Shown here piece by piece: positions 1,937 through 54,471 of a stretch of 64,000 nucleotides of DNA (position 1 is its first letter; every line of letters starts with the position of its first letter). The translations under genes and the position numbers were made by a program. The stretch covers positions 32,001 to 96,000 of the IMG/VR virus record IMGVR_UViG_3300027714_000001; one strand, given 5' to 3'. The notes under the pieces were generated by a model. It worked only from the letters and a program-made list of their open reading frames with translations, was not told where the DNA came from and searched no databases. This DNA comes from a virus.

Positions 1937-4111
1937 ATGCAAGTAAAGAAAAGAAATGGCAATATTGAGAAATTTGACCCAAATAAAAGCAGACAGTGGG
2001 TTATGTGGTCAGTTGAGGGGTTAAAAGACAGAATAAAAATGGAATACGCAATCCTAGAAGAAACTTTTAACAGATTACCTGAGATTGTTACTACAGAAGA
2101 AATACATCAAACTATAATTAATGTGTGTCTTGATAAAGAAGATATACTATATAGTAGAGTTGCTGCTAAGCTAGAATTAGCTAGCATATACAAAGCTCAA
2201 GAACACAAACTAGGGCTATATAAGCCGTACAATGCAAGCTTCACTGACATTATGGAAAGGATGGAGACTAAAGGATTGTGGGCAGGCGCGTGGCTAAACG
2301 ATGAAGACCTTGTAGAAAAAGAAGACTTAATCAATGAGTGGTTTATAGAGCTAGAGGCACACGCATTAGAGTTTTGTACTATCAAGCAGTGGTCAGATAA
2401 GTATTCTATAAAAATAAAAGGCGAAGCAGTAGAGACACCAGCAGCAGGATGCTTAGCAATAGCTATTGCTTATCATGGAGTTACTGATTTAGCTTTCGGA
2501 GTTGCACAAGATTTAATAACATACAAACTAAACCTACCAACACCAGCATTAAACGGTTGTAGAAACGGTGACTTTAACAGTATCTCATGTTGTATCATAG
2601 AGGCAGGTGACACTGTAGAAAGTATTGACACAGCAGAAGCAATTGCAAGTGCTATGACAGCAAAGAAAGCAGGTATAGGTATTACACTAGATACTAGGTC
2701 TAAAGGTGACCCTGTAAAGAACGGAGCAGTTACTCACTTAGGTAAGCACCCTCTATATAAATCTATTGAGTCTAGCGTTAAAAAATATACACAGCTAACT
2801 CGTGGGGGTTCTGCTACTATGACGTTCAAGGCTATAGACCCAGAAATTATGAAAATGCTGCTTTGGAAAACACAAAGAATTGACTTAGCACAGCGCGTAG
2901 ACAAAATGGACTACAGCTTTGCATATAATGATTTCTTCGTAGAAAGCGTACTTAACAATGATGACTGGTACTTATTCAGCAAGCATTTCGCACCACAAGT
3001 ACATGACAACTTCCATTCACCAAATTACGAAGAATACGTAAAAGAAGCTTTAAACAACAACACCCCACACACTAAAGTAAAGGCTATAGACCTACTAAAA
3101 GAGTTCCTGACAAGCAGATGGGAAACAGGTAGACTTTACTGCATTAACGTGACAAGAACAAACGAACACACGCCCTTTATAGATACTATCGTACAATCTA
3201 ATCTTTGTTTAGAGATAGCTCTACCAACTAAGCCTTACATAGACTTAGATGATTTCAGAGCAGAGAACTCAATCGGAGAGACAGCATTCTGTACTATCGC
3301 AGCATTAAACGTAGCAAATATATCCTTCGAGGAATACCCAGCAGTAGCAGAAAGAGCATTACGTACAGTAACCAAAATGATGGAAAAAGCTCCTTGTCTA
3401 ACTAAAGGGCTAAAGAATTTACTACTATCAAGACGCTCAGTAGGTATAGGTATTACAGGTCTGGCTTCTTTAGTTTATAAGAACGGCCTAGACTACGATG
3501 AATCAAAAGAATCAATAAACTTTATAGAAGAAGCAGCAGAACTACATTATCATTCACTACTAACAGCTAGTCAAAAAATGTCAAAAGAAACAGGTATCGA
3601 AGTAAAAGGTATCAAAACTGACTGGCTACCAATAGATACAAAGAAAGGAGACAAAGAACCAGTATTTGATTGGGAAAAGCTTAGAGGTATTCCTAGAATG
3701 CACAGTGTACTAGTAGCTAACATGCCTACTGAGTCTAGCGCAGTATTTAGCAATGCTACAAACGGAGTATATCCTAGCAGAAGTAGAGTAATATACAAGA
3801 AGGCAAGAAAAGGTAAAGTACAATTTATAAGTCAGCATTTTACACCTGACAAGCTAAGTGCTTGGGATGTAAACATGGTACCTTACTACGGAGTAATCCA
3901 AAACTTTGCAGACCAATCAACCTCTGCCGACTACTACACGGATTTTACTAAGTATCCGAATAAAAAAGTACCAATGAAAGAACTAATTAGATGGTTTGTG
4001 AAACAGTGGAAAGCAGGCAGCAAAACCTGTTACTACCAGAACTTCCTAGATACTAGAGGGGAAGAAGTTGAACAAGAGGATTCGTGTGAAGGCGGATCTT
4101 GCAAACTTTAA
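1937..4111 (+). CDS. nrdA: Class Ia ribonucleotide reductase large subunit with N-terminal ATP cone
   Basis: VKKRNG ATP-cone start, SCC, SNLCLEI, MPTESS motifs, C-terminal CxxxxC. Confidence 0.95.
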   Translation: MQVKKRNGNIEKFDPNKSRQWVMWSVEGLKDRIKMEYAILEETFNRLPEIVTTEEIHQTIINVCLDKEDILYSRVAAKLELASIYKAQEHKLGLYKPYNASFTDIMERMETKGLWAGAWLNDEDLVEKEDLINEWFIELEAHALEFCTIKQWSDKYSIKIKGEAVETPAAGCLAIAIAYHGVTDLAFGVAQDLITYKLNLPTPALNGCRNGDFNSISCCIIEAGDTVESIDTAEAIASAMTAKKAGIGITLDTRSKGDPVKNGAVTHLGKHPLYKSIESSVKKYTQLTRGGSATMTFKAIDPEIMKMLLWKTQRIDLAQRVDKMDYSFAYNDFFVESVLNNDDWYLFSKHFAPQVHDNFHSPNYEEYVKEALNNNTPHTKVKAIDLLKEFLTSRWETGRLYCINVTRTNEHTPFIDTIVQSNLCLEIALPTKPYIDLDDFRAENSIGETAFCTIAALNVANISFEEYPAVAERALRTVTKMMEKAPCLTKGLKNLLLSRRSVGIGITGLASLVYKNGLDYDESKESINFIEEAAELHYHSLLTASQKMSKETGIEVKGIKTDWLPIDTKKGDKEPVFDWEKLRGIPRMHSVLVANMPTESSAVFSNATNGVYPSRSRVIYKKARKGKVQFISQHFTPDKLSAWDVNMVPYYGVIQNFADQSTSADYYTDFTKYPNKKVPMKELIRWFVKQWKAGSKTCYYQNFLDTRGEEVEQEDSCEGGSCKL

Positions 4112-4143: not shown

Positions 4144-5490
4144 ATGTATACAGTGTATAGTAAAGACAACTGCCCTTGGTGTGTAAAAGCAATCGAGTTA
4201 TTAACAGAACATAACCTAGAACACACCGTAGTTAAAGTAGAGTCTATAGAAGAACTTACTACAAAACTACAAAACTACACAACACTAAATGAGATTAACA
4301 CAGTTCCTCAGATAGTAGAAGACAAGTTTTTAATCGGAGGCTACCAAGACCTAGTAAAAACACTAAAAGGTGCACATGGTATTATAAGCGGAAATAAGAT
4401 ACTCAAAACAAAGAAAACTGTTTTCAACGCTGATAATGTAGGACATGAGACAGGGGAATATCCTTTGTTCTTAGGTGACCAGTTAGGTTTCCTAGACACA
4501 ATCAATACTCCTTACCCTGTACTAGACGAGCTATACCAAGCTCAGCTATCACAAATCTGGAACGAGTTTGAGATAGACCTTACACAAGACAGACAAGATA
4601 TGATTAATGCTCGTCCCGAAGTTGTAGACCTTATGGTAAAGACAATCTTATGGCAACATCTAGCAGACTCTATTGCTTCTAGGTCAATTACAGGTATCCT
4701 TATGGATTACGTGTCTAACTCAGACTTAGAAAGCTGGTACAACTGCGTAGCGTTATTCGAAACAATACATGCTAGAAGCTACAGTTTAATTATCAAGCAG
4801 ACATTCAATAACCCTAACGAAGCGTTAAAGAATGGCTACGAAGATTTACAAGTAATACAGCGTTCAGATATATTACGTGACGCATTTGACGGATTAGGCA
4901 ACTTACCTTTCGATGCGCCTAGAGAAGAAAAAGAAGAAAAACTGTATATTGCAATAGCTGCATTGTATATGTTAGAAAGCTTAAACTTCATGGCATCATT
5001 TGCTATTACGTTCGGTATTGTAGAAACAGGAATCATGCAGGGTATTGGTCAAATAGTATCACTAATCTGTCGTGACGAATTGTTACACGCAAGAGGTGGA
5101 CGAGAAGTTCTAAATATCGAGTTTAAGAGAAATCCAGAACTTGCTAAGAGACTTAGACCTCACTTCCAGAAAATGTTTGACGCTATCGTGTCCACAGAAT
5201 TAGAATGGACAGACTATTTGTTCAGTCAGGGTCGTCAAGTAATTGGACTAAGCCCTGAGCTTATCAAAAAGTACGTATTGTTTATGGCACAGCCTGTAGC
5301 AAATACTTTAGGTCTAGTAACAGAAAAGATAGAAACTACTCCATTACCGTACATGGAGACTTACATTGACTCTAGTAAGGTTCAAGTTGCTGCACAAGAG
5401 CTACAGCTAACTTCATACCTAGTAAACTCAGTGTCCCCTCTAACAGATCAAGACGAGTTTCTAGCAGAACTTCGAGGAGAAATGTATTAA
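4144..5490 (+). CDS. nrdB: Glutaredoxin fused to ribonucleotide reductase small subunit
   Basis: N-terminal CPWC, TVPQI and IGGY glutaredoxin motifs, then R2 motifs ETIHARSY and RDELLH. Confidence 0.92.
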   Translation: MYTVYSKDNCPWCVKAIELLTEHNLEHTVVKVESIEELTTKLQNYTTLNEINTVPQIVEDKFLIGGYQDLVKTLKGAHGIISGNKILKTKKTVFNADNVGHETGEYPLFLGDQLGFLDTINTPYPVLDELYQAQLSQIWNEFEIDLTQDRQDMINARPEVVDLMVKTILWQHLADSIASRSITGILMDYVSNSDLESWYNCVALFETIHARSYSLIIKQTFNNPNEALKNGYEDLQVIQRSDILRDAFDGLGNLPFDAPREEKEEKLYIAIAALYMLESLNFMASFAITFGIVETGIMQGIGQIVSLICRDELLHARGGREVLNIEFKRNPELAKRLRPHFQKMFDAIVSTELEWTDYLFSQGRQVIGLSPELIKKYVLFMAQPVANTLGLVTEKIETTPLPYMETYIDSSKVQVAAQELQLTSYLVNSVSPLTDQDEFLAELRGEMY

Positions 5491-5959
5491 AGCTATATTT
5501 GCTAACGATTTGGCAGGTGGTTTTGGAAATAAGGGAGGCCTACCCTGGCCTTCCAACTCTATAGACCTACAACACTTTAAGAAACAAACCCAAGGAGCTT
5601 ATATAATTATGGGCAGGAACACTTGGGAAACTTTACCAAAACTAAAAAATAGAACTCCTGTAGTGGTGTCTTCTAAAATAGGTAAAAATAAAGGGCTTTG
5701 GATACCTTCGGACATACTACAACAAGAACTAGAAGACTGTTGGCAAGGAGAAACTAACGCTTTCCTTATAGGAGGAGCTAAACTGCTAACACCTCAAAAT
5801 TTAAAGTTATGTACTAGCATAATTCATACTACTATAAAAGAAGTATATTACTCATGTGATACATATATCAATGAGAACACATTAGGGTTTCTAGGCACAC
5901 TAGACTCTCATCTAATCTACGAAGACAAGCATATAGAAATAAGAGAACATATCGTATAA
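5486..5959 (+). CDS. dfr: Dihydrofolate reductase (start probably ATT at 5486, upstream of the called TTG)
   Basis: IKAIFA...GNKGGLPW, DLQHFK, IMGRNTW, IGGA motifs. Confidence 0.9.
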   Translation: MKAIFANDLAGGFGNKGGLPWPSNSIDLQHFKKQTQGAYIIMGRNTWETLPKLKNRTPVVVSSKIGKNKGLWIPSDILQQELEDCWQGETNAFLIGGAKLLTPQNLKLCTSIIHTTIKEVYYSCDTYINENTLGFLGTLDSHLIYEDKHIEIREHIV

Positions 5960-7260: not shown

Positions 7261-7633
7261 ACTTTTACTAGTAAACAGTGCGGAAGACGAAAGTCTACTA
7301 AAGTATCTAAAAGATAGTGGCTACTTAATAGTGTTTTGCAAGCCCAATGAGATAATAAAGACATGCAAGAAAGTAGCTCCTCAAATAATACTAATTCTAG
7401 ATATGCAGGACGATCTAGAATTAGTAGAGTTATTAAGTAACCCTGACATATCTAGTATACCTGCTATTCACGCTACAACAGGATACCCAGTAGACGATAC
7501 TTCTAAACATACAAAGTTTTTTGATATATCAAAGAAAGTAAACATTTATAAATCACTTATAAACATGAAGATTATATCAGACAAACTATCAAATATTATA
7601 GCAAAACAAGTTGACATAGAGGATGCTTTCTAG
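7250..7633 (+). CDS. Stand-alone CheY-like receiver (REC) domain protein, degenerate
   Basis: KLLLV...YLKDSGYLIV...PQIILILD...DDLELVELL...IPAIHATTG follows the REC beta1-beta4 pattern. Confidence 0.6.
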   Translation: MINKLLLVNSAEDESLLKYLKDSGYLIVFCKPNEIIKTCKKVAPQIILILDMQDDLELVELLSNPDISSIPAIHATTGYPVDDTSKHTKFFDISKKVNIYKSLINMKIISDKLSNIIAKQVDIEDAF

Positions 7634-43675: not shown

Positions 43676-44169
43676 AAGATTATTTGACAGTAGGATTTTC
43701 CTATGCTATAATTACAAGGTAATCTTAAGAGAGACTAGAGAGAATCTTTAGAATCTCTACTACCTCCGCAAGATTTGACAGAGCTTAAGGTCTAGGATAT
43801 ACACCTCCCGATACCATACGGGAAGGGGGTGTTTATACGCAGACTAACTTTAGCTTCTTCAAATCTAAAACAAACAACAAATCATTAACAGCCACAGCTA
43901 TATCTACCAACAAATATAACAACTAATATCTACACAAGAGGGGACTTTTAACGCTATAGAACCCACTCGAACGGTATGAACAACCAATGTCGTATAGAGC
44001 TTCGAGAACCCCTTCACCATAATACTAGCCTACACTAGTCCACACCAGACTACACCAATATCGTCCTAGACCAGAGTAGAACAACACAAGACTACACCAG
44101 CCCGCTAATGTCCCCAAGAGAGACTGCGGGCTTTTTTGTGTCTAAAATTTAATACCTCTAGTCAAAACT

Positions 44170-44284
44170 GTCATAATTGTTCGCTAATGTCCAAAAGCAG
44201 TCAGAATTGCAGTCATAATTGTTCGCTAATGTCCAAAAGCAGTCAGAATTGCAGTCATAATTGTTCGCTAATGTCCAAAAGCAG
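44170..44284. repeat. 42-bp tandem repeat (~2.7 copies) containing GTTCGCTAATGTCC
   Basis: Unit GTCATAATTGTTCGCTAATGTCCAAAAGCAGTCAGAATTGCA. Confidence 0.95.
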
Positions 44285-44426
44285 GGGCCGACCCCATCGG
44301 AATAGACAACCCCGTCAGCTCAGAACGGGCTAGGGCGCAGGAGAGCTTCTAACGGGACATTAGCGGTCTGCCCCGAGTCTAACACCAGATTAGCCGTGGT
44401 TACACCGAAATAAACTTTAAATAGCG

Positions 44427-44636: not shown

Positions 44637-44800
44637 AACGTAACATAAGTACTACCTCGCGGGCGCAACAACGTAACATAAGTACTACCTCGCGGGCGCA
44701 ACAACGTAACATAAGTACTACCTCGCGGGCGCAACAACGTAACATAAGTACTACCTCGCGGGCGCAACAACGTAACATAAGTACTACCTCGCAGGCGCAA
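44637..44800. repeat. 33-bp tandem repeat, 5 copies
   Basis: Unit AACGTAACATAAGTACTACCTCGCGGGCGCAAC. Confidence 0.97.
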
Positions 44801-44976
44801 ACAGGGGTGAACCCCTTTTGACCAATCTAAACTGATCAAAATTTGACTGGACCGACCAGTCAAATAAAGCTTGACACGAGAACGCTGCGCGCAGCTTCCA
44901 TGCCACTTTGTCAAGCTTTTTATTTAATTTTAAGCAAAAAAAAGCCATGCCAATGTGGCACAGCTTTTGCTAGAGC

Positions 44977-45339
44977 TTACAGCTCAGTAGCGACTGACAA
45001 AGCAGCGAGAGCTTCGTTCAAGCGGTCTAGGTCAGCTTTGCTGGCCTTCTCTAAAGAATCCAACTCGCCTTCCTTAAGGCTAAGAAAAATTTCAGCAGCC
45101 CGCACTAGCGAGATTTTGCGAGTGCCAGTTTTTGAGGTTACAGAAACTTTGACGTTAGGCTCATACAAACCTTCGCTTACTAGTTTACCGCGAACCATAG
45201 GAATGGTCTTGCCCAAACCTTTTGCGATGCTAGACAAGGCATCGTTTTCGCCTTTGTATTCGCTTTTAAGAGTAGCGATTTGCGCAGGAGTCCAAGATAC
45301 AGATTTTACAGCAGATTTTACAGTTTTTGCATTAGACAT
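44977..45339 (-). CDS. T5 A2-like DNA-binding / DNA-transfer protein
   Basis: W.......IA...G......VR.KL.....Y......RK...VR......L.SLE.A pattern of T5 A2; tandem duplicated promoter upstream (45379-45536). Confidence 0.75.
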   Translation of the reverse strand: MSNAKTVKSAVKSVSWTPAQIATLKSEYKGENDALSSIAKGLGKTIPMVRGKLVSEGLYEPNVKVSVTSKTGTRKISLVRAAEIFLSLKEGELDSLEKASKADLDRLNEALAALSVATEL

Positions 45340-45625: not shown

Positions 45626-45642
45626 TTGGCACGGGTCTTGCT
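45626..45642 (+). promoter_or_regulatory. sigma54 -24/-12 consensus site
   Basis: TTGGCAC-GGGTC-TTGCT; IHF consensus AATCAATGACTTA at ~45680. Confidence 0.55.
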
Positions 45643-47069
45643 AGGAAAATAGGGGGTTGACTTTTAAAAACTCCTTTAAAATCAATGACTTACGCCGCTT
45701 CGCCGCGCGCGGCTGCGACCCCCTTTTGTCAAGTTTTATTTTTCAAATTTTAAATAATTTGCTCATACTTAATCCCTAACACTAGCCATAAAATCAGAGC
45801 AATCATCCGCGTTAAAATTTCCATCTTCGTCTATGTCTTCCGATTCAATCCAGCCTGAATCAGTTTGTAAAAGACCATGTGATTCTGCAAAATCCTGCTC
45901 GTATTTTTCCATCGCAATGTCTTCCGCTTGGTTCTCGTCTTCCGCTTCGACTTCGTAATGTTCACTGTACCCACACCAGTCTACAGCGTAAATTTCTACT
46001 ATGAATTTTTTCATCGGTTTAGCTCCTTAAACATTAATTGTCTTATTGTTTCGCACGTAGCGTCACTTGCTAAAATAGAAATATTTTTAAAAGTCTTACC
46101 ATCCCTTCGAAGTTCTGCGCCTAGCTCCTTAGCTATATACTGAGAATCAGCAAACTTTAAAACAGGCATTGCCATACAATGCAACGAACGTTGACGAAAA
46201 AGGCCGCCCCCTTTTGTTAGCGTGATCTCTCCGTCTTCCCAAATTTCTTGTACCATCCCAACATTTTCCATAGTTGGGGCGGCTTTAAATGCTTCGATTA
46301 TTTTTAAAATGCTCATTTTTGTAGTTCCTTAAGTAGGTCTTCTAGTTCTGAAATTTGGTCTTGTCTGTCTCCAAGCTCTGATACTATATTATCATATTCT
46401 TCATGACAATGCTCTATTTCTTTGATAAGTTTTGCTATTTTTAAGGCTCTTGCAGGGTCAAAATTTAAGTCTACTGTTTTTACTCGTAAAACAGTAACAG
46501 ATTTATACGTATCTGGAATCTGTTCTAGGGTTTCAAAGTATTCTACTACTTCAATACACCCACCAGAGTAGTTGTCTCCAACTACTTTAGAACTTACTAC
46601 CTTATAAAGTTTACTCATCATTTTTCTTCCTAGTTATTCAATACAAGTATTATCTCATAAATAAGCTACGTTGTCTAATACCGTTTTAGTATATGCTTAT
46701 GCATTTTTAGTCTTGACAGGCGTTCCGCCGCGCGCGGCTGCGACCCCCTTTTGTCAAGTTTTATTTTTCAAATATTTTTTCATCCCCTTTTAAGTCCTTT
46801 TTTTTGTTTTTTAAAAATAATTACTGCTTGCTTTCTATAAAATTCCTTAGTCTCTGTGCAATTATTTTCATTATACCCTTCATCTACTAAGTTTTTAAAA
46901 TTTCTTAACATGCTTTTAATATTCTCCAATAGCTAAAATTAAATTCTTTTTTGTCGGTATATTTGTTTGACTTTTTGCAAAATTTCTTTGCTTCTTTTTC
47001 TGTCTCACAATAGCCGACAATATCCACAATTCCAAACTTATCTGTAATTTCTACAATATACATATTATA

Positions 47070-48091: not shown

Positions 48092-48782
48092 TTTTTAATT
48101 CTCTATCTAAGTAAGTGCTAATTATAGCTTTTTTGGTGGTTTGTGTCAAGTGTTTATTTAAGCTATTTTATAAATAAATTCTCTTTGCTCTCCCCATCCA
48201 ACACAAGTATTATCTCATACCCTTTCAACATTGTCAACCCTTTATTTTATTTTGTTTTAAATTTAATTTAAAACTAACTCTGTACCGATTCAACACAAGT
48301 ATTATCTCATAAATACGTTGGGTTGTCAAAGACCGTTTTGGTATAGCTTTGCTTGTTTTTATACCAAAACGGTCTTGACAGGCGTTCCGCCGCGCGCGGC
48401 TCCTGCGGCCCTGTCAAGTTTTTATTAAAAATAAAATTCTTTCTAGTGTGTCTATTTCGCCCGCTATGTAAGCTAATCTGTACGCTTTTTGTCGGGTGTT
48501 TTCTCTCTCATTAGTTACTAGTTTATGCGTGTTTCTTGCGATTTTTAGCTCTTTTTCTATTATTTGTTTTGGCAACATCTTTTTTCTCCTTTTTGTGAAA
48601 TTTTAAATAGCATTCGTATACGCTTAAATATTCTTCGGCTTCCTGATTTACATAGTTTTTACCTTCAAGATAGACGCAAACGGATGCCTCTTGCTTGTAT
48701 GTTTCCCAATAATTGGCAACGGCTTCAAGGCTAGTAAATACACCATGAACTTCTAGATACTCTAGTGCAACATAAATCATTA

Positions 48783-49295
48783 TTAATGACCCTCAAAAGG
48801 TACGTTTATAGATTGCATACCGATTTTAATAACGGCTTTGCAGTTTGCTAAATTATCATCAATCAAAACCATTTTTTCCAATTGGCGAAAATCAAAACGG
48901 CTAATTAAGTGTGTAGTTTTTAAGTGGTAATCTCTGCGAGAATCATTTTCACCACATCGCGCCATAATTGATTTAGGCTTTACGTTATTATTAGCTAACC
49001 AAGCTTTTGTGTTATCACACATTACGCGAGCTGTACATATATGAAAATCAACTCCCGCTTCCTGTAGTAAGTGAATTGCCTTAATTAATGGTAAAGCTTT
49101 ATCTTTTGATACATGTTCGGCGGTTGACATTTCGCGGTACTTGTCAAGGTTTAATGAACCGTCTTTGTTGCAAATCTGTCTATGACTTGCATCGGCAAAA
49201 ACTCCGTCCATATCAAAAACAGGAACTTTTTTCGCCATGATTAGGGTAGCGGCTAATTGAGTTGCTGACTTTTTGTTATTTTGTAGTGTAAACAT
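48783..49295 (-). CDS. HAD phosphatase (dmp/PNKP-like)
   Basis: VFDMDGV, CTAR, K, IDDN motifs; pre-early location like T5 dmp. Confidence 0.75.
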   Translation of the reverse strand: MFTLQNNKKSATQLAATLIMAKKVPVFDMDGVFADASHRQICNKDGSLNLDKYREMSTAEHVSKDKALPLIKAIHLLQEAGVDFHICTARVMCDNTKAWLANNNVKPKSIMARCGENDSRRDYHLKTTHLISRFDFRQLEKMVLIDDNLANCKAVIKIGMQSINVPFEGH

Positions 49296-49848: not shown

Positions 49849-50172
49849 TTAAGCTTCTACCAGAGCCTGCACAGCATCTAGGATGGTTTCAAGATCAGAT
49901 TTTGATGCCTTCTCAAAGCTGGTAACTTCTTCAACACCTAGCAAGTCAGAGATTGCTTGCACTAGGGTGATTTTACGAACCGCCCTGCTAACGCTAGGGG
50001 ATGCGCTTTTTGCTTTAGCAACATAAACACCTTCGGCAACAAGCTTGCCACGTACTTGCGGGATAGTCTTGCCCATGTCTTTAGCGATAGTTGCAATTGC
50101 AACGCCTTCCTGATACTTAGCAGTCATAGCGGCAACAGATTCGGTAGTATAAGCGGTAGATTTAGTAGTCAT
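49849..50172 (-). CDS. Second A2-like paralog
   Basis: Shares IAK..GKTIP.VRGKLV.EG.Y, RKI.LV.A and S.EKASK.DL with 44977..45339. Confidence 0.75.
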   Translation of the reverse strand: MTTKSTAYTTESVAAMTAKYQEGVAIATIAKDMGKTIPQVRGKLVAEGVYVAKAKSASPSVSRAVRKITLVQAISDLLGVEEVTSFEKASKSDLETILDAVQALVEA

Positions 50173-50744: not shown

Positions 50745-50816
50745 GCACCTAATATTTGCACCTAATATTTGCACCTAATATTTGCACCTAATATTTGCAC
50801 CTAATATTTGCACCTA
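50745..50816. repeat. 13-bp tandem repeat, 5.5 copies
   Basis: Unit GCACCTAATATTT. Confidence 0.97.
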
Positions 50817-51168
50817 TAAGTTTTGTACATAAGTAGTCCCAAACTCAAGAGGGATCTGCCCCGTCTTTTTGTTGATGAAATTTTGAACGATTGGCTGAAA
50901 ATCGAAATTCTTAGCAATGCTCTTATATACCCCCACATCGGTCAAATCTGCAAGCACGTTAGCCGCTACAAGCTCATTAAGTATTTTTAGACCCTTAGTT
51001 ACACTATCAACCTTAAACGTCTTAGAAGGCATCCTAGAGCTTGATTCTGAAAAAACCCGAATTGCTATTGTTGACATATGTTATACCCTTTAGTTATATT
51101 AAATTCATGCCCATTGGCACAATAAATCCTAAACGAGAATGGTTCTCGTTTAGGAGTGACCCACCTTT

Positions 51169-51639
51169 TTAGATACTTGTCAATAATTCATTTATCAATT
51201 TATTGATTCTATCAATGTCAAGGTCAATATTATTTAATTCAAATTTTTCTTGCTTTTTATTATATATCACTTGTAACGCTTTGTGTACCGTTTTTTCGTA
51301 TTTGCCATTTATTTCTTCAAGTTTCTTCGTAAGTTCTTTACGAGCTTTTGAGCAGCTTTCTAGCGCGTATTTATCTGCCAGATTATTAAATTCAACATCA
51401 TCCGTTATAACAAAAACAGTCACTAATGAGTCACTATCAACCAAAACGTTATAACGTCTTAGTGCTTGATATGGGTGAAAAGATTTACCCACTTTGCAAG
51501 CCCATTTTATGTTATTTTTGCCCAAAAAACTACCCACCGGCACTGAATATATGGTGTTAGCTAATTTGCCTATTTTGTGATCAGATTGGTGATTTTTTAG
51601 GCTTTTTTGGATTGCTCGTATTTTCATCGTTTTTCTCAT
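51169..51639 (-). CDS. Hypothetical protein downstream of a sigma54-type promoter
   Basis: 156-aa ORF with a C-terminal coiled coil. Confidence 0.6.
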   Translation of the reverse strand: MRKTMKIRAIQKSLKNHQSDHKIGKLANTIYSVPVGSFLGKNNIKWACKVGKSFHPYQALRRYNVLVDSDSLVTVFVITDDVEFNNLADKYALESCSKARKELTKKLEEINGKYEKTVHKALQVIYNKKQEKFELNNIDLDIDRINKLINELLTSI

Positions 51640-51666
51640 TTAATTGATTAGGTATTACCTATATAA

Positions 51667-51865
51667 TGCAACCTACGTGCCAAGTTGCAAAATAGGTAAG
51701 TCGTTGATTTATAAGGGTTTTTATATTCTAGCTAATTGAATAGTTGGCATGATGACATTTTATGCACCTGAATAGTGCAATGATTCCTGATTATAGTGCA
51801 CCACTTTGGTAAGTCGTTGATTTATAAGGGTTTTTAACCTTTTTGAGATGCACCAAAAACTGACA
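51667..51865 (-). promoter_or_regulatory. sigma54 promoter with IHF sites and NtrC-type enhancer sites
   Basis: TTGGCAC-GTAGG-TTGCA (51683-51667); AATCAACGACTTA (51709-51697 and 51822-51810); TGCAC-N7-GTGCA (51763-51779); TGCACCACTTTGGT (51797-51810). Confidence 0.75.
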
Positions 51866-51959
51866 TACCAAAAACACAAAAAACGTGTTAAGTCTAATAA
51901 CAAATTAATCAAAAAATAAACAAAAAAGTATTGGACATTTGAAAATCATAGCAAAAAAC

Positions 51960-52101
51960 TTATCCACAGGTTATCCACACACTTATACATCTGGGGATAA
52001 AAAGCGGCTTTTTAAAATGTCAACCTTTTATTTTAGCTCTCTCAGTGAGTTATACAGAACTTACCCACAGGGTTATCCACAGGCTGTTGGGTTGTGGGTA
52101 A
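51960..52101. promoter_or_regulatory. DnaA-box cluster
   Basis: TTATCCACA at 51960, 51971 and 52073; one-mismatch boxes at 51992(-), 52061 and 52093(-). Confidence 0.85.
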
Positions 52102-52213: not shown

Positions 52214-52234
52214 AAATGATTACCATTCGCATTT
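52214..52234. promoter_or_regulatory. Fur-box-like site
   Basis: AAATGATTACCATTCGCATTT compared with AATGATAATCATTATCATT. Confidence 0.5.
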
Positions 52235-52729
52235 GGCGGCGCGGGCGCGATGCGGGCTGTAGAGCATCGCTACAGCCCGCGCCCTTAAAGGGCGGTAGAC
52301 TGCCCCAACAGCTTATACGTTATTTTCTCAACCCTATCTTCATGTATACCATATTGATCTAAATAGCTCTTTTGAGCGTCTACAAGTGTGTTGCCTTCAG
52401 CCGTTGCAACGTGCATTCTGCCACCAATTAAATTTGTTGTGAATTGATAAACTTTCATATTTTGCTACCTTTTAAAATTTTCTGGTTAAACCGAATTGTT
52501 TAACCAGACCTATATCCTACAGCGCTCGGGTACCTTAGTCAAGTAAATGTTTAAAGTTATTTCCAGATATGTCTGCTTTAGTTCTTAGGTAAACATTTTT
52601 ATTTGTGGTACTTTTACCTGCCTGTATATCTTTGCGGATATTTGACCAGTCAAATGCTACCACGTCAACGAAATATTCCGCCAATTCGATTTTTCCAGAT
52701 TCTAGTATTAGGTAGTAATTAGTTGCTTT

Positions 52730-53643: not shown

Positions 53644-53994
53644 ATGACCACATTCACTATCACAAGATTAACAGAGACACAAGCACGAATCATGCCACAA
53701 GGCAATCATTTATATTTATGTGAGACCCTGACAAAACTTGGCATGAATTTTGATGGCACCAAGTTCGGAAAGTGTAAAGCGAAAAACGGCCTATGGGAGC
53801 GTCTACGCTCCCATAGTACCAACTGCCCATTTGGTCTAATCATAGTCCTGACGTTCACTACAGAGGCTGCTATGTGTGCCGCTGAGAGCGCCTGTAAGAC
53901 TTCTCTACCAACCCTTGCTTGGAATAGCTCAGAACGAGAATATACTTCATTAACCCCTGAGAAGGCTTTACAAGCTCTATTACGTAACATCTAA
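53644..53994 (+). CDS. T5orf172/GIY-YIG-like protein
   Basis: HLYL...KFGK......ERL.......P..L.......AE pattern. Confidence 0.45.
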   Translation: MTTFTITRLTETQARIMPQGNHLYLCETLTKLGMNFDGTKFGKCKAKNGLWERLRSHSTNCPFGLIIVLTFTTEAAMCAAESACKTSLPTLAWNSSEREYTSLTPEKALQALLRNI

Positions 53995-54120
53995 TAGGGG
54001 CGGGGGGGGTTAGGAGACTGGTCTGACCAGTCCGACCCCCCAGACCCATTTCCAAACGCGATATAGGGTATTTTCAAAAAAGTGGAGAGGCGCGACAAAT
54101 ATCGGCTGAGGAGACCCTCA

Positions 54121-54350
54121 CTACGGTTCTCTGCGGGACATTAGCGAACGGGGTATACTATTTCTACTACGGTTCTCTGCGGGACATTAGCGAACGGGGT
54201 ATACTATTTCTACTACGGTTCTCTGCGGGACATTAGCGAACGGGGTATACTATTTCTACTACGGTTCTTTGCGGGACATTAGCGAACGGGGTATACTATT
54301 TCTACTACGGTTCTCTGTGGAACATTAGCGAACGGGGTATACTATTTCTA
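54121..54350. repeat. 46-bp tandem repeat, 5 copies, containing GGACATTAGCGAAC
   Basis: Unit CTACGGTTCTCTGCGGGACATTAGCGAACGGGGTATACTATTTCTA; an extra core copy lies at 54371. Confidence 0.97.
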
Positions 54351-54471
54351 CTTTGCAGTAGCCTGAGCCAGGACATTAGCGAACTGCAGGTAGTTTAACG
54401 AAGTTCGCTTAAAATTTTTACTTGACAGGATATTTCTGGAGATGTATAATGCAAGTATAGAGGAGAAATAC

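Follow-up and report, generated by a model that had tools for sequence, protein, structure and literature searches.

A predicted host sigma-54 promoter in the early block of a marine T5-like phage

The intergenic segment 51856-51656 (minus strand) of a 64,000-nucleotide stretch of viral DNA (hereafter the window; bases 32001-96000 of the 106,179-bp IMG/VR viral contig IMGVR_UViG_3300027714_000001) holds a compact (~200 bp) and perfectly canonical set of promoter elements, which we take, with slightly more confidence than doubt, to be a promoter for host sigma-54 polymerase that needs an NtrC-type enhancer-binding protein for its activation. Such a promoter would be of a known kind, the host sigma-54 enhancer promoter, in a new setting, the early block of a marine T5-like phage, an assignment that remains computational.

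The -24/-12 core of this module (TTGGCAC-GTAGG-TTGCA, Table 1) fits the extended consensus TGGCACG-N4-TTGCW at all positions, with precisely 10 bp between the GG and GC doublets, and lies 29-41 nt before the open reading frame (ORF) 51627-51169 on the same strand. Positions given below with a minus sign are relative to a predicted transcription start (+1) at ~51656, i.e., 12 nt past the C of the -12 GC. Located 80 nt upstream of the core, the dyad TGCACTATTCAGGTGCA (center at -115) is the sole TGCAC-N7-GTGCA in the 106-kb genome. Both the “perfect” -24/-12 element and the “perfect” palindrome centered at ~51771 had been reported in a first-pass annotation of this sequence, and both were borne out by a direct reading of the minus strand.

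A distal NtrC-type site, of which only the left half (TGCACTAT) is kept, lies 21 bp further upstream, in a register homologous to that of the second dyad found in a related phage (see below). The “near-site” previously placed at ~51805 (-149) corresponds to a TGGTGCA half-site overlapping this distal site; it is present as a half-site only, and is not conserved in the relative. Across the 10.5-kb block around the module TGGTGCA occurs only twice, both times within the module (Table 1). Classical NtrC sites follow the consensus TGCACC-N5-GGTGCA, and those of the enterobacterial promoter glnAp2 lie at about -108 and -140. The dyads of the window and of the two relatives described below are close to this classical consensus (as TGCACY-N4/5-GGTGCA).

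This combination of motifs is far beyond chance. Scanned against shuffled sequence, as the first-pass annotation had proposed, the exact core consensus (TGGCAC-N5-TTGCW) occurs three times in the window vs. 0.07 times in the shuffles, and the count for the whole 106-kb genome is also three vs. ~0.05 expected from base composition, these strict matches falling within 7 kb of each other and all inside the early block. For an exact core with a dyad within 140 bp upstream, the joint expectation is ~3e-6 per genome.

Between dyad and core, an A-tract and an IHF-consensus core (51709-51697, -53 to -41) together span -66 to -41 and fit the IHF pattern, i.e., a WATCAANNNNTTR core with an A/T tract ~8 bp upstream, here AAAAA-N8-AATCAACGACTTA. 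This core is embedded in an exact 27-28-nt repeat, with a second copy upstream in the module (Table 1) and a third at 45673 on the opposite strand. The first-pass annotation had likewise noted an IHF consensus and a copy at 51810, and both are indeed present, although the second copy is specific to the window and absent from the corresponding place in the relative. IHF is a weak candidate for the protein bound at the bend element. A short conserved box, ATGCCAAC, forms an inverted repeat around the IHF-like site with GTTGGCAC of the -24 box, and the T-tract-rich stretch just upstream of the enhancer (51856..51959) may be intrinsically bent DNA.

The phage genome encodes no sigma-54 activator of the PF00158 family, so that any activator has to come from the host. 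From these elements, the promoter would work as follows: sigma-54 holoenzyme would sit on TTGGCAC-N5-TTGCA as a closed complex, a host NtrC-type protein would bind the dyad at -115 and the weaker sites from about -136 to -196, and a bend at the A-tract/WATCAA element (-66 to -41), induced by IHF or a similar protein, would carry the activator over to the polymerase. The promoter would then be opened at the expense of ATP hydrolyzed by the activator, with transcription predicted to start near 51656, to read the single 152-aa orphan gene (51627-51169), and to end at the terminator at 51155-51127. As the phage brings no activator of its own, the gene would be silent unless the infected cell holds an active one, which for NtrC would mean nitrogen limitation.

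Conservation of the module in related phages

A metagenome scan with the Dmp-like protein encoded near the module retrieved three contigs of one related marine phage (L125-L127), whose Dmp-like protein is 72% and whose large terminase is 66% identical to that of the window phage. In L126 and L127, the 17-mer of the sigma-54 core is identical at 17 of 17 positions (7609-7625 in L127). Upstream of it, L127 carries two perfect dyads, TGCACTATTGGGGTGCA and TGCACTTACATGGTGCA, 21 bp apart and centered at -138 and -117, as well as a third near-dyad further upstream. The first of these (TGCACTATTGGGGTGCA, 7490-7506, center -138) aligns with the degenerate distal site of the window, and the counterpart of the proximal dyad (7511-7527, center -117) keeps all 10 dyad positions with five of seven spacer bases changed. 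The IHF-like site is identical at 26 of 30 positions and lies at -54 to -42 in L127 vs. -53 to -41 in the window.

Overall, the positions of the module elements agree within 2 bp between the two phages (-117/-138 in L127 vs. -115/-136 in the window), and the spacers between the elements are only 40-58% identical. Identity is thus concentrated in the elements themselves with their spacers diverged, which is the pattern expected of sites under selection. Whether the sites and their spacing are kept in related phages had been put forward as a check in the first-pass annotation, and L126 and L127 answer it in the affirmative. A 124-aa gene lies downstream of the L127 module, for which tblastn found no similarity to the gene downstream of the window module.

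Another relative, L002, is closer to the window by its large terminase (76% identical), and its homologous core retains the GG-N10-GC signature together with IHF-like motifs. This core precedes a homologue of window ORF 53644-53994, which in the window has an ordinary sigma-70 promoter. Elsewhere in L002, three tandem TTGGCAT-N5-TTGCA boxes are closely preceded by two perfect NtrC-type dyads. This dyad/triple-core region was considered as a counterpart of the window module and rejected, as it does not align with it.

Two side observations were made on these relatives. L127 holds a perfect palindrome, TTGGCA-N6-TTGCA-ACA-TGCAA-N6-TGCCAA (7329-7364), ~290 nt upstream of the conserved promoter, which can be seen as a TTGCA-N3-TGCAA dyad, the LuxO-type consensus, flanked by two sigma-54-like cores that face each other. 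L002 has, at 5300-5415, a TGCAC-containing 13-nt array next to phased T-tracts, the two NtrC-type dyads and the three tandem sigma-54-like boxes, analogous to a 13-nt tandem array of the window with regularly spaced half-sites (50745..50816, Table 1). A relation of the window array to NtrC is unproven.

Weighing of alternative explanations

Several observations weigh against an NtrC-activated sigma-54 promoter. The distal NtrC-type site is degenerate in the window, the core in L002 is only TTGGCAT-N5-CTGCA, lacks an upstream NtrC dyad and drives a different gene, and several sigma-54 consensus matches in the clade are not promoters at all (being part of a terminator hairpin, antisense of coding sequence or start-codon regions, see below). 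The IHF consensus has 12 matches in the genome, i.e., about the number expected from composition, and the IHF-like motif is both conserved beyond the IHF consensus and found beside GC-rich hairpins in distant relatives without sigma-54 sites. The presence of rpoN, ntrC and ihf in the host is assumed. Finally, the sequences corresponding to the promoter in L127 (7609-7636) and L002 (6319-6346) score 10/12 as sigma-70 promoters (TTGGCA-16-TATAGT), and all three phages keep, past the -12 box, a TATATAG that might serve as a -10 element.

These last two points would fit an ordinary sigma-70 promoter with TTGGCA, one base off the sigma-70 hexamer, as its -35 element, the GG-N10-GC being a by-product and the dyads modulatory or unconnected; all other genes of the early block do lie behind strong sigma-70 promoters. 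We nevertheless consider this unlikely. In the window, the sigma-70 register is broken by a one-base difference and a T-to-G change (TTGGCA-16-TAGGTA), the best alternative (TTGCAA-16-CATTAT) scores 8/12, no sigma-70-type site of at least 9/12 is found on the minus strand between 51640 and 52400, and the phage with this broken reading still recurs in seven marine DNA data sets. Moreover, the window and L127 agree at all 11 “spacer” bases, CGTAGGTTGCA, a constraint not expected of a sigma-70 spacer, the promoter has neither the A-rich UP element nor the TGnGATAAT -10 that sigma-70 promoters of the block typically show, and dyads at -115 and -136 with an intervening bend site form an enhancer rather than a repressor geometry. 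Because the sigma-70 reading is broken in the window, the sigma-54 register perfect and the 11 spacer bases identical, a sigma-54 promoter is favored, which some relatives might combine with an overlapping sigma-70 one.

Even if the promoter depends on sigma-54, its signal may not be nitrogen: another host activator could bind TGCA-type dyads, or a phage protein (e.g., an A2-like one) could act at the bend element. The nearest cultured relatives infect Vibrio, which is rich in such activators, L127 has the perfect TTGCA-N3-TGCAA dyad ~290 nt upstream of the same promoter, the homologous promoter of L002 has different upstream dyads (GTGT-N11-ACAC), and the bend motif, conserved beyond the IHF consensus, occurs 3-4 times per genome, often next to A2-like genes. 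Set against this, the dyads of the window, L127 and L002 all closely match classical NtrC sites, the extended NtrC consensus recurs in all 21 contigs of an architecture scan (see below), and no LuxO-type dyad was found in the window, which leaves this option a little less credible still than a sigma-70 promoter. Also improbable, in our estimation, is that the sites act at the DNA level, with host proteins (DnaA, IHF, sigma-54 holoenzyme, NtrC) on the first-entering DNA serving for anchoring, an injection pause, insulation, a roadblock or titration. The module abuts three DnaA boxes in a block with dmp-like and A2-like genes, and both DnaA boxes and dense repeats are recognized features of the iss region in T5-like phages (bioRxiv 10.1101/866236); in addition, other sigma-54 sites of the clade point against genes or lie by DnaA boxes (window 45627, Gary 424, VspSw_1 2584), some in face-to-face pairs (TTGGCA...TGCCAA). 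The element at 51.7 kb, in contrast, has a full promoter anatomy in the right order and spacing and immediately precedes an ORF that comes with its own ribosome-binding region and terminator, and the same arrangement is kept before a gene in L127. To our knowledge, no landmark or roadblock mechanism has been demonstrated for sigma-54 holoenzyme in phages. As for a mere coincidence of motifs in AT-rich intergenic DNA, the IHF consensus does occur at chance rate and some sigma-54 matches in the clade are demonstrably accidental, but the very small joint expectation and the recurrence of every element at the same spacing in L126 and L127, between diverged spacers, make this highly implausible.

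The sigma-54 reading thus stays the preferred one, with NtrC as the predicted activator and a coupling to nitrogen as a deduction from the sequence of the sites.

Target gene and transcription unit

The ORF behind the promoter, preceded by a ribosome-binding region, has two candidate start codons, of which the one at 51627 is favored because it yields a 152-aa form in line with the lengths of two remote homologues (153 and 157 aa). Its product is an orphan with a helical, coiled-coil C-terminal half. The protein belongs to no PHROG or Pfam family, has no relative in IMG/VR, and returned only its own cluster in a word-indexed protein search, whereas a full HMMER search added two plausible remote homologues without known function, the rest being coiled-coil noise. 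An AlphaFold model computed without alignment had too low a confidence (predicted local distance difference test, pLDDT, of 37.6) to be used.

A weak lead is a T5orf172-like protein: a language-model search (Atlas) placed the target protein near T5orf172 clusters (score 0.92), and the ORF downstream of the L127 module has a sub-threshold Pfam T5orf172 match (E-value 0.06). A profile comparison with T5orf172 (hhalign) was not significant and did not bear this lead out (probability 0.6%, E-value 0.097).

Table 1. Location of the promoter elements, target gene and neighboring features in the window.
Feature	Position	Strand	Remarks
Sigma-54 -24/-12 core TTGGCACGTAGGTTGCA (TTGGCAC-GTAGG-TTGCA)	51683-51667	-	Direct reading of strand
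Proximal IHF-like element	51693..51722	-	A-tract AAAAA 51722-51718, 8-nt spacer, core AATCAACGACTTA
Conserved box ATGCCAAC	51743..51750	-	8/8 identical to L127, between diverged spacers
NtrC-type dyad TGCACTATTCAGGTGCA	51779-51763, center 51771 (-115)	-	Direct reading
Distal degenerate NtrC-type site	51800-51784, center -136	-	Left half TGCACTAT kept, right half degenerate
TGGTGCA half-site overlapping the distal site	51803-51797	-	Direct reading
Second exact copy of the 27-28-nt IHF-like repeat	51808..51835, core 51822-51810	-	113 bp upstream of first copy
Additional TGGTGCA half-site	51855-51849 (~-196)	-	Motif scan
T-tract-rich ORF-free stretch upstream of the enhancer	51856..51959	-	49/113 identical to L127
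DnaA boxes TTATCCACA, three consensus copies	51960, 51971, 52073 (region 51960..52081)	+	Just upstream of the module
Target ORF, 152 aa (156 aa if from 51639)	51169..51627	-	ATG codons at 51639 and 51627
Intrinsic terminator	51127..51155	-	13-bp stem and T-rich tail; closes the one-gene unit
13-nt tandem array, 5.5 copies	50745..50816	+	AGGTGCA/TGCACC half-sites every 13 bp
A2-like genes (paralogues of T5 A2 DNA-binding protein)	44977-45339 and 49849-50172		E-values 1e-5 and 1e-3
dmp-like HAD phosphatase gene	48783-49295		Early block; homologues annotated dmp in 347 Vibrio phage records
Second sigma-54 consensus TGGCACGGGTCTTGCT	45627..45694	+	Followed by 48-nt stretch identical in L127, with IHF-like motif
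Third exact sigma-54 match	44956..44971	+	In hairpin/T-run of terminator of A2-like gene 44977-45339

Source genome and early block

The contig from which the window is taken has ends that overlap by 524 bp, and its gene content includes 20 tRNAs, a ribonucleotide reductase, NAMPT, terminase, portal, a fused protease/capsid protein and a major tail protein. Its large terminase is 53-56% identical to the terminases of Vibrio T5-like siphophages (Demerecviridae), Vibrio being the host of the nearest cultured relatives. No named phage of INPHARED matched the window at the nucleotide level, in either near or distant searches, and near-identical DNA was recovered from seven marine metagenome runs of four studies (2017-2024).

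The module is part of a leftward block of ~10 kb (~44.1-54.4 kb), which lies between rightward early/tRNA genes and rightward structural genes with tandem arrays on both flanks, and consists of many small genes with strong, repeated sigma-70 promoters carrying UP elements, together with an untranslated stretch rich in repeats and DnaA boxes. Of the four consensus DnaA boxes in the genome, three adjoin the module, and DnaA boxes are found in the corresponding region of related loci and of T5 as well. The dmp-like and A2-like genes, a DnaQ-like exonuclease gene inside the block and these DnaA boxes give the block its resemblance to the pre-early region of T5-like phages. The first-pass annotation had called the target a “pre-early” gene, and the presence of a dmp-like gene, two A2-like genes and DnaA boxes is consistent with this label; an A1 homologue was sought and not found, and a “pre-early” status is best seen as a presumption drawn from these neighbors and boxes.

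Metatranscriptome contigs from four runs of two marine studies, at least 99% identical to the window, span 45.1-50.3 kb with its A2-like, exonuclease and dmp-like genes, so that sequences matching the early genes of this phage do occur in marine RNA libraries, with the caveat that RNA libraries may carry over DNA. These contigs leave 50.3-52.3 kb uncovered, a gap that carries no information on the expression of the target ORF.

Repeats of several other kinds were observed in the block. Tandem arrays at 44098-44370 and 54074-54398 (42-nt x2.7 and 46-nt x5.1) bracket it and share a common core, CGCTAATGTCC, which is inverted between them; the array on the right adjoins the gene for the small terminase, and a different array stands at the place of a bracketing array in L127. 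These arrays may delimit a terminal repeat or mark a site of packaging. A 33-nt tandem repeat in five exact copies (44637-44800) lies just downstream of the terminator of an A2-like gene, and GCGC-rich hairpins (GCCGCGCGCGGC-type) mark gene boundaries at 45696-45750, 46710-46776, 48372-48401 and 52228-52290, often with CTTGACA/TGTCAAG arms and adjoining the IHF-like motif, a pairing of motif and GC-rich hairpin that is also seen in relatives.

Other sigma-54 consensus sites and wider occurrence

Of the two other exact sigma-54 matches in the window, the one at 45627 points against the early genes and has a counterpart in L127 (12491-12556, minus strand). A small RNA that would start there matches no Rfam family and folds no better than shuffled sequences (z = -0.32), and an IMG/VR scan with a conserved 22-mer of this element gave no match. 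The match at 44956 was examined as a promoter and rejected, since it lies inside a terminator hairpin and T-run; by eye, its counterparts in relatives are terminators too. Likewise set aside as sigma-54 promoters were the matches at L002 2464 and L127 10483 (antisense of a coding sequence, A-I-x-V-P) and those at 2899, 3371 and 3595 of Vibrio phage VspSw_1 (start-codon regions of paralogues).

Among cultured phages, Vibrio phage Gary (L129) has exact sigma-54 consensus sequences at 424-439 and 3969-3984 of its pre-early region, and VspSw_1 (L130) has sigma-54 sequences at 2584-2599 and 5800-5832 of its own. One exact consensus, beside DnaA boxes, is conserved between these two phages of different genera. 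A face-to-face TTGGCA...TGCCAA pair was also seen in VspSw_1. Several other matches in these phages are artifacts of coding sequence or of start-codon regions. The first 12 kb of T5 hold no sigma-54 consensus at up to one mismatch.

Scanning IMG/VR with the exact 17-mer gave a single match, in the tail-fiber gene of an unrelated phage, which we judged to be due to chance. With a pattern for the architecture instead (TGCAC-N7-GTGCA 70-100 nt upstream of TGGCAC-N5-TTGC), 21 viral contigs were retrieved (L132-L152), including several families with conserved, apparently ORF-free downstream sequence. The GGTGCA/TGCACC extension was found in all 21 dyads although the pattern did not demand it (~12% expected by chance). 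The five larger records contain no glnA, and two of them are ~100% complete phage genomes. The dyad/core architecture thus recurs in phages, and NtrC/sigma-54 modules seem to occur in phages other than the one described here.

Relation to known systems and biological significance

The closest models for the module are the enterobacterial promoters glnAp2 and glnHp2, both NtrC-activated sigma-54 promoters, of which glnHp2 also uses IHF. As in these, a -24/-12 core is combined with TGCACY-N5-GGTGCA-type dyads (one perfect and one half-degenerate in the window, two perfect in L127) located over 100 bp upstream, putatively on one face of the helix, with an IHF-type bend site between enhancer and core and no activator gene nearby. 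Unlike them, the window module is a prediction from sequence, belongs to a phage genome of virulent type and precedes an orphan gene. The dyads also differ in detail, those of glnAp2 being ~32 bp apart (-108/-140) and those of the window 21 bp apart (-115/-136) with a degenerate distal one.

Use of sigma-54 by phages is rare but known: the development of Pseudomonas aeruginosa phage YuA is reported to depend on host sigma-54, with a sigma-54-like promoter (P015) mapped (Ceyssens et al., 2008, as cited in PMC5053324 and PMC10914365). Like YuA, the window phage would be a tailed phage drawing on host sigma-54 polymerase for part of its program. YuA, however, is an unrelated Pseudomonas siphophage, an NtrC/IHF enhancer architecture is not mentioned for it in the texts consulted, and the window phage would have only one or two such promoters in an otherwise sigma-70-driven early block. 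A second parallel comes from marine T4-like cyanophages, whose NtcA sites were read as exploiting the nitrogen-stress response of the host (PMC3037559, Sullivan et al., 2010). In both cases, genes of a marine phage lie behind sites, predicted ones in the window, for a global nitrogen regulator of the host; NtcA, however, is a CRP-family activator of sigma-70 promoters in cyanobacteria, whereas the route suggested for the window would be NtrC and sigma-54 in a heterotroph. Regulons of NtrC are widely distributed among Proteobacteria (PMC5343134).

With respect to its location, the block resembles the pre-early/iss region of T5 (Davison, bioRxiv 10.1101/866236; NC_005859) in being a ~10-kb block next to the terminase genes with dmp-like and A2-like genes, many small genes with strong sigma-70 promoters, dense repeats and DnaA boxes, and differs from it in the sigma-54 consensus, absent from the first 12 kb of T5, and in the lack of a detected A1 homologue. 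Full-text literature searches brought up no account of T5-like or Vibrio phages with sigma-54/NtrC promoters.

Early genes of phages are normally read unconditionally, by the sigma-70 polymerase of the host or by phage enzymes. A sigma-54 promoter, on the other hand, needs an activated host ATPase to fire, and a phage gene behind one would therefore be conditional, i.e., expressed only in a particular state of the host. For NtrC, this state is nitrogen starvation, a common condition of marine bacteria.

At the level of the group, it is tempting to go further and propose that marine T5-like phages wire part of their first-entering DNA to the sigma-54 machinery of the host, a joint proposal that we regard as possible rather than probable. 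Under it, expression of one pre-early gene would hinge on NtrC and hence on the nitrogen state of the host at infection, further conserved sigma-54 sites, by DnaA boxes or against early operons, would be activator-gated antisense promoters or holoenzyme roadblocks, and NtrC/sigma-54 modules would represent a widespread, undescribed way for phages of heterotrophs to sense nutrient status, as a counterpart of the cyanophage NtcA sites. If the conditional promoter described here is borne out, abundant marine siphophages would have infection programs that vary with the nutrient status of the host by way of a defined and testable cis-element, and the idea developed for NtcA in cyanophages would extend to the phages of heterotrophs.

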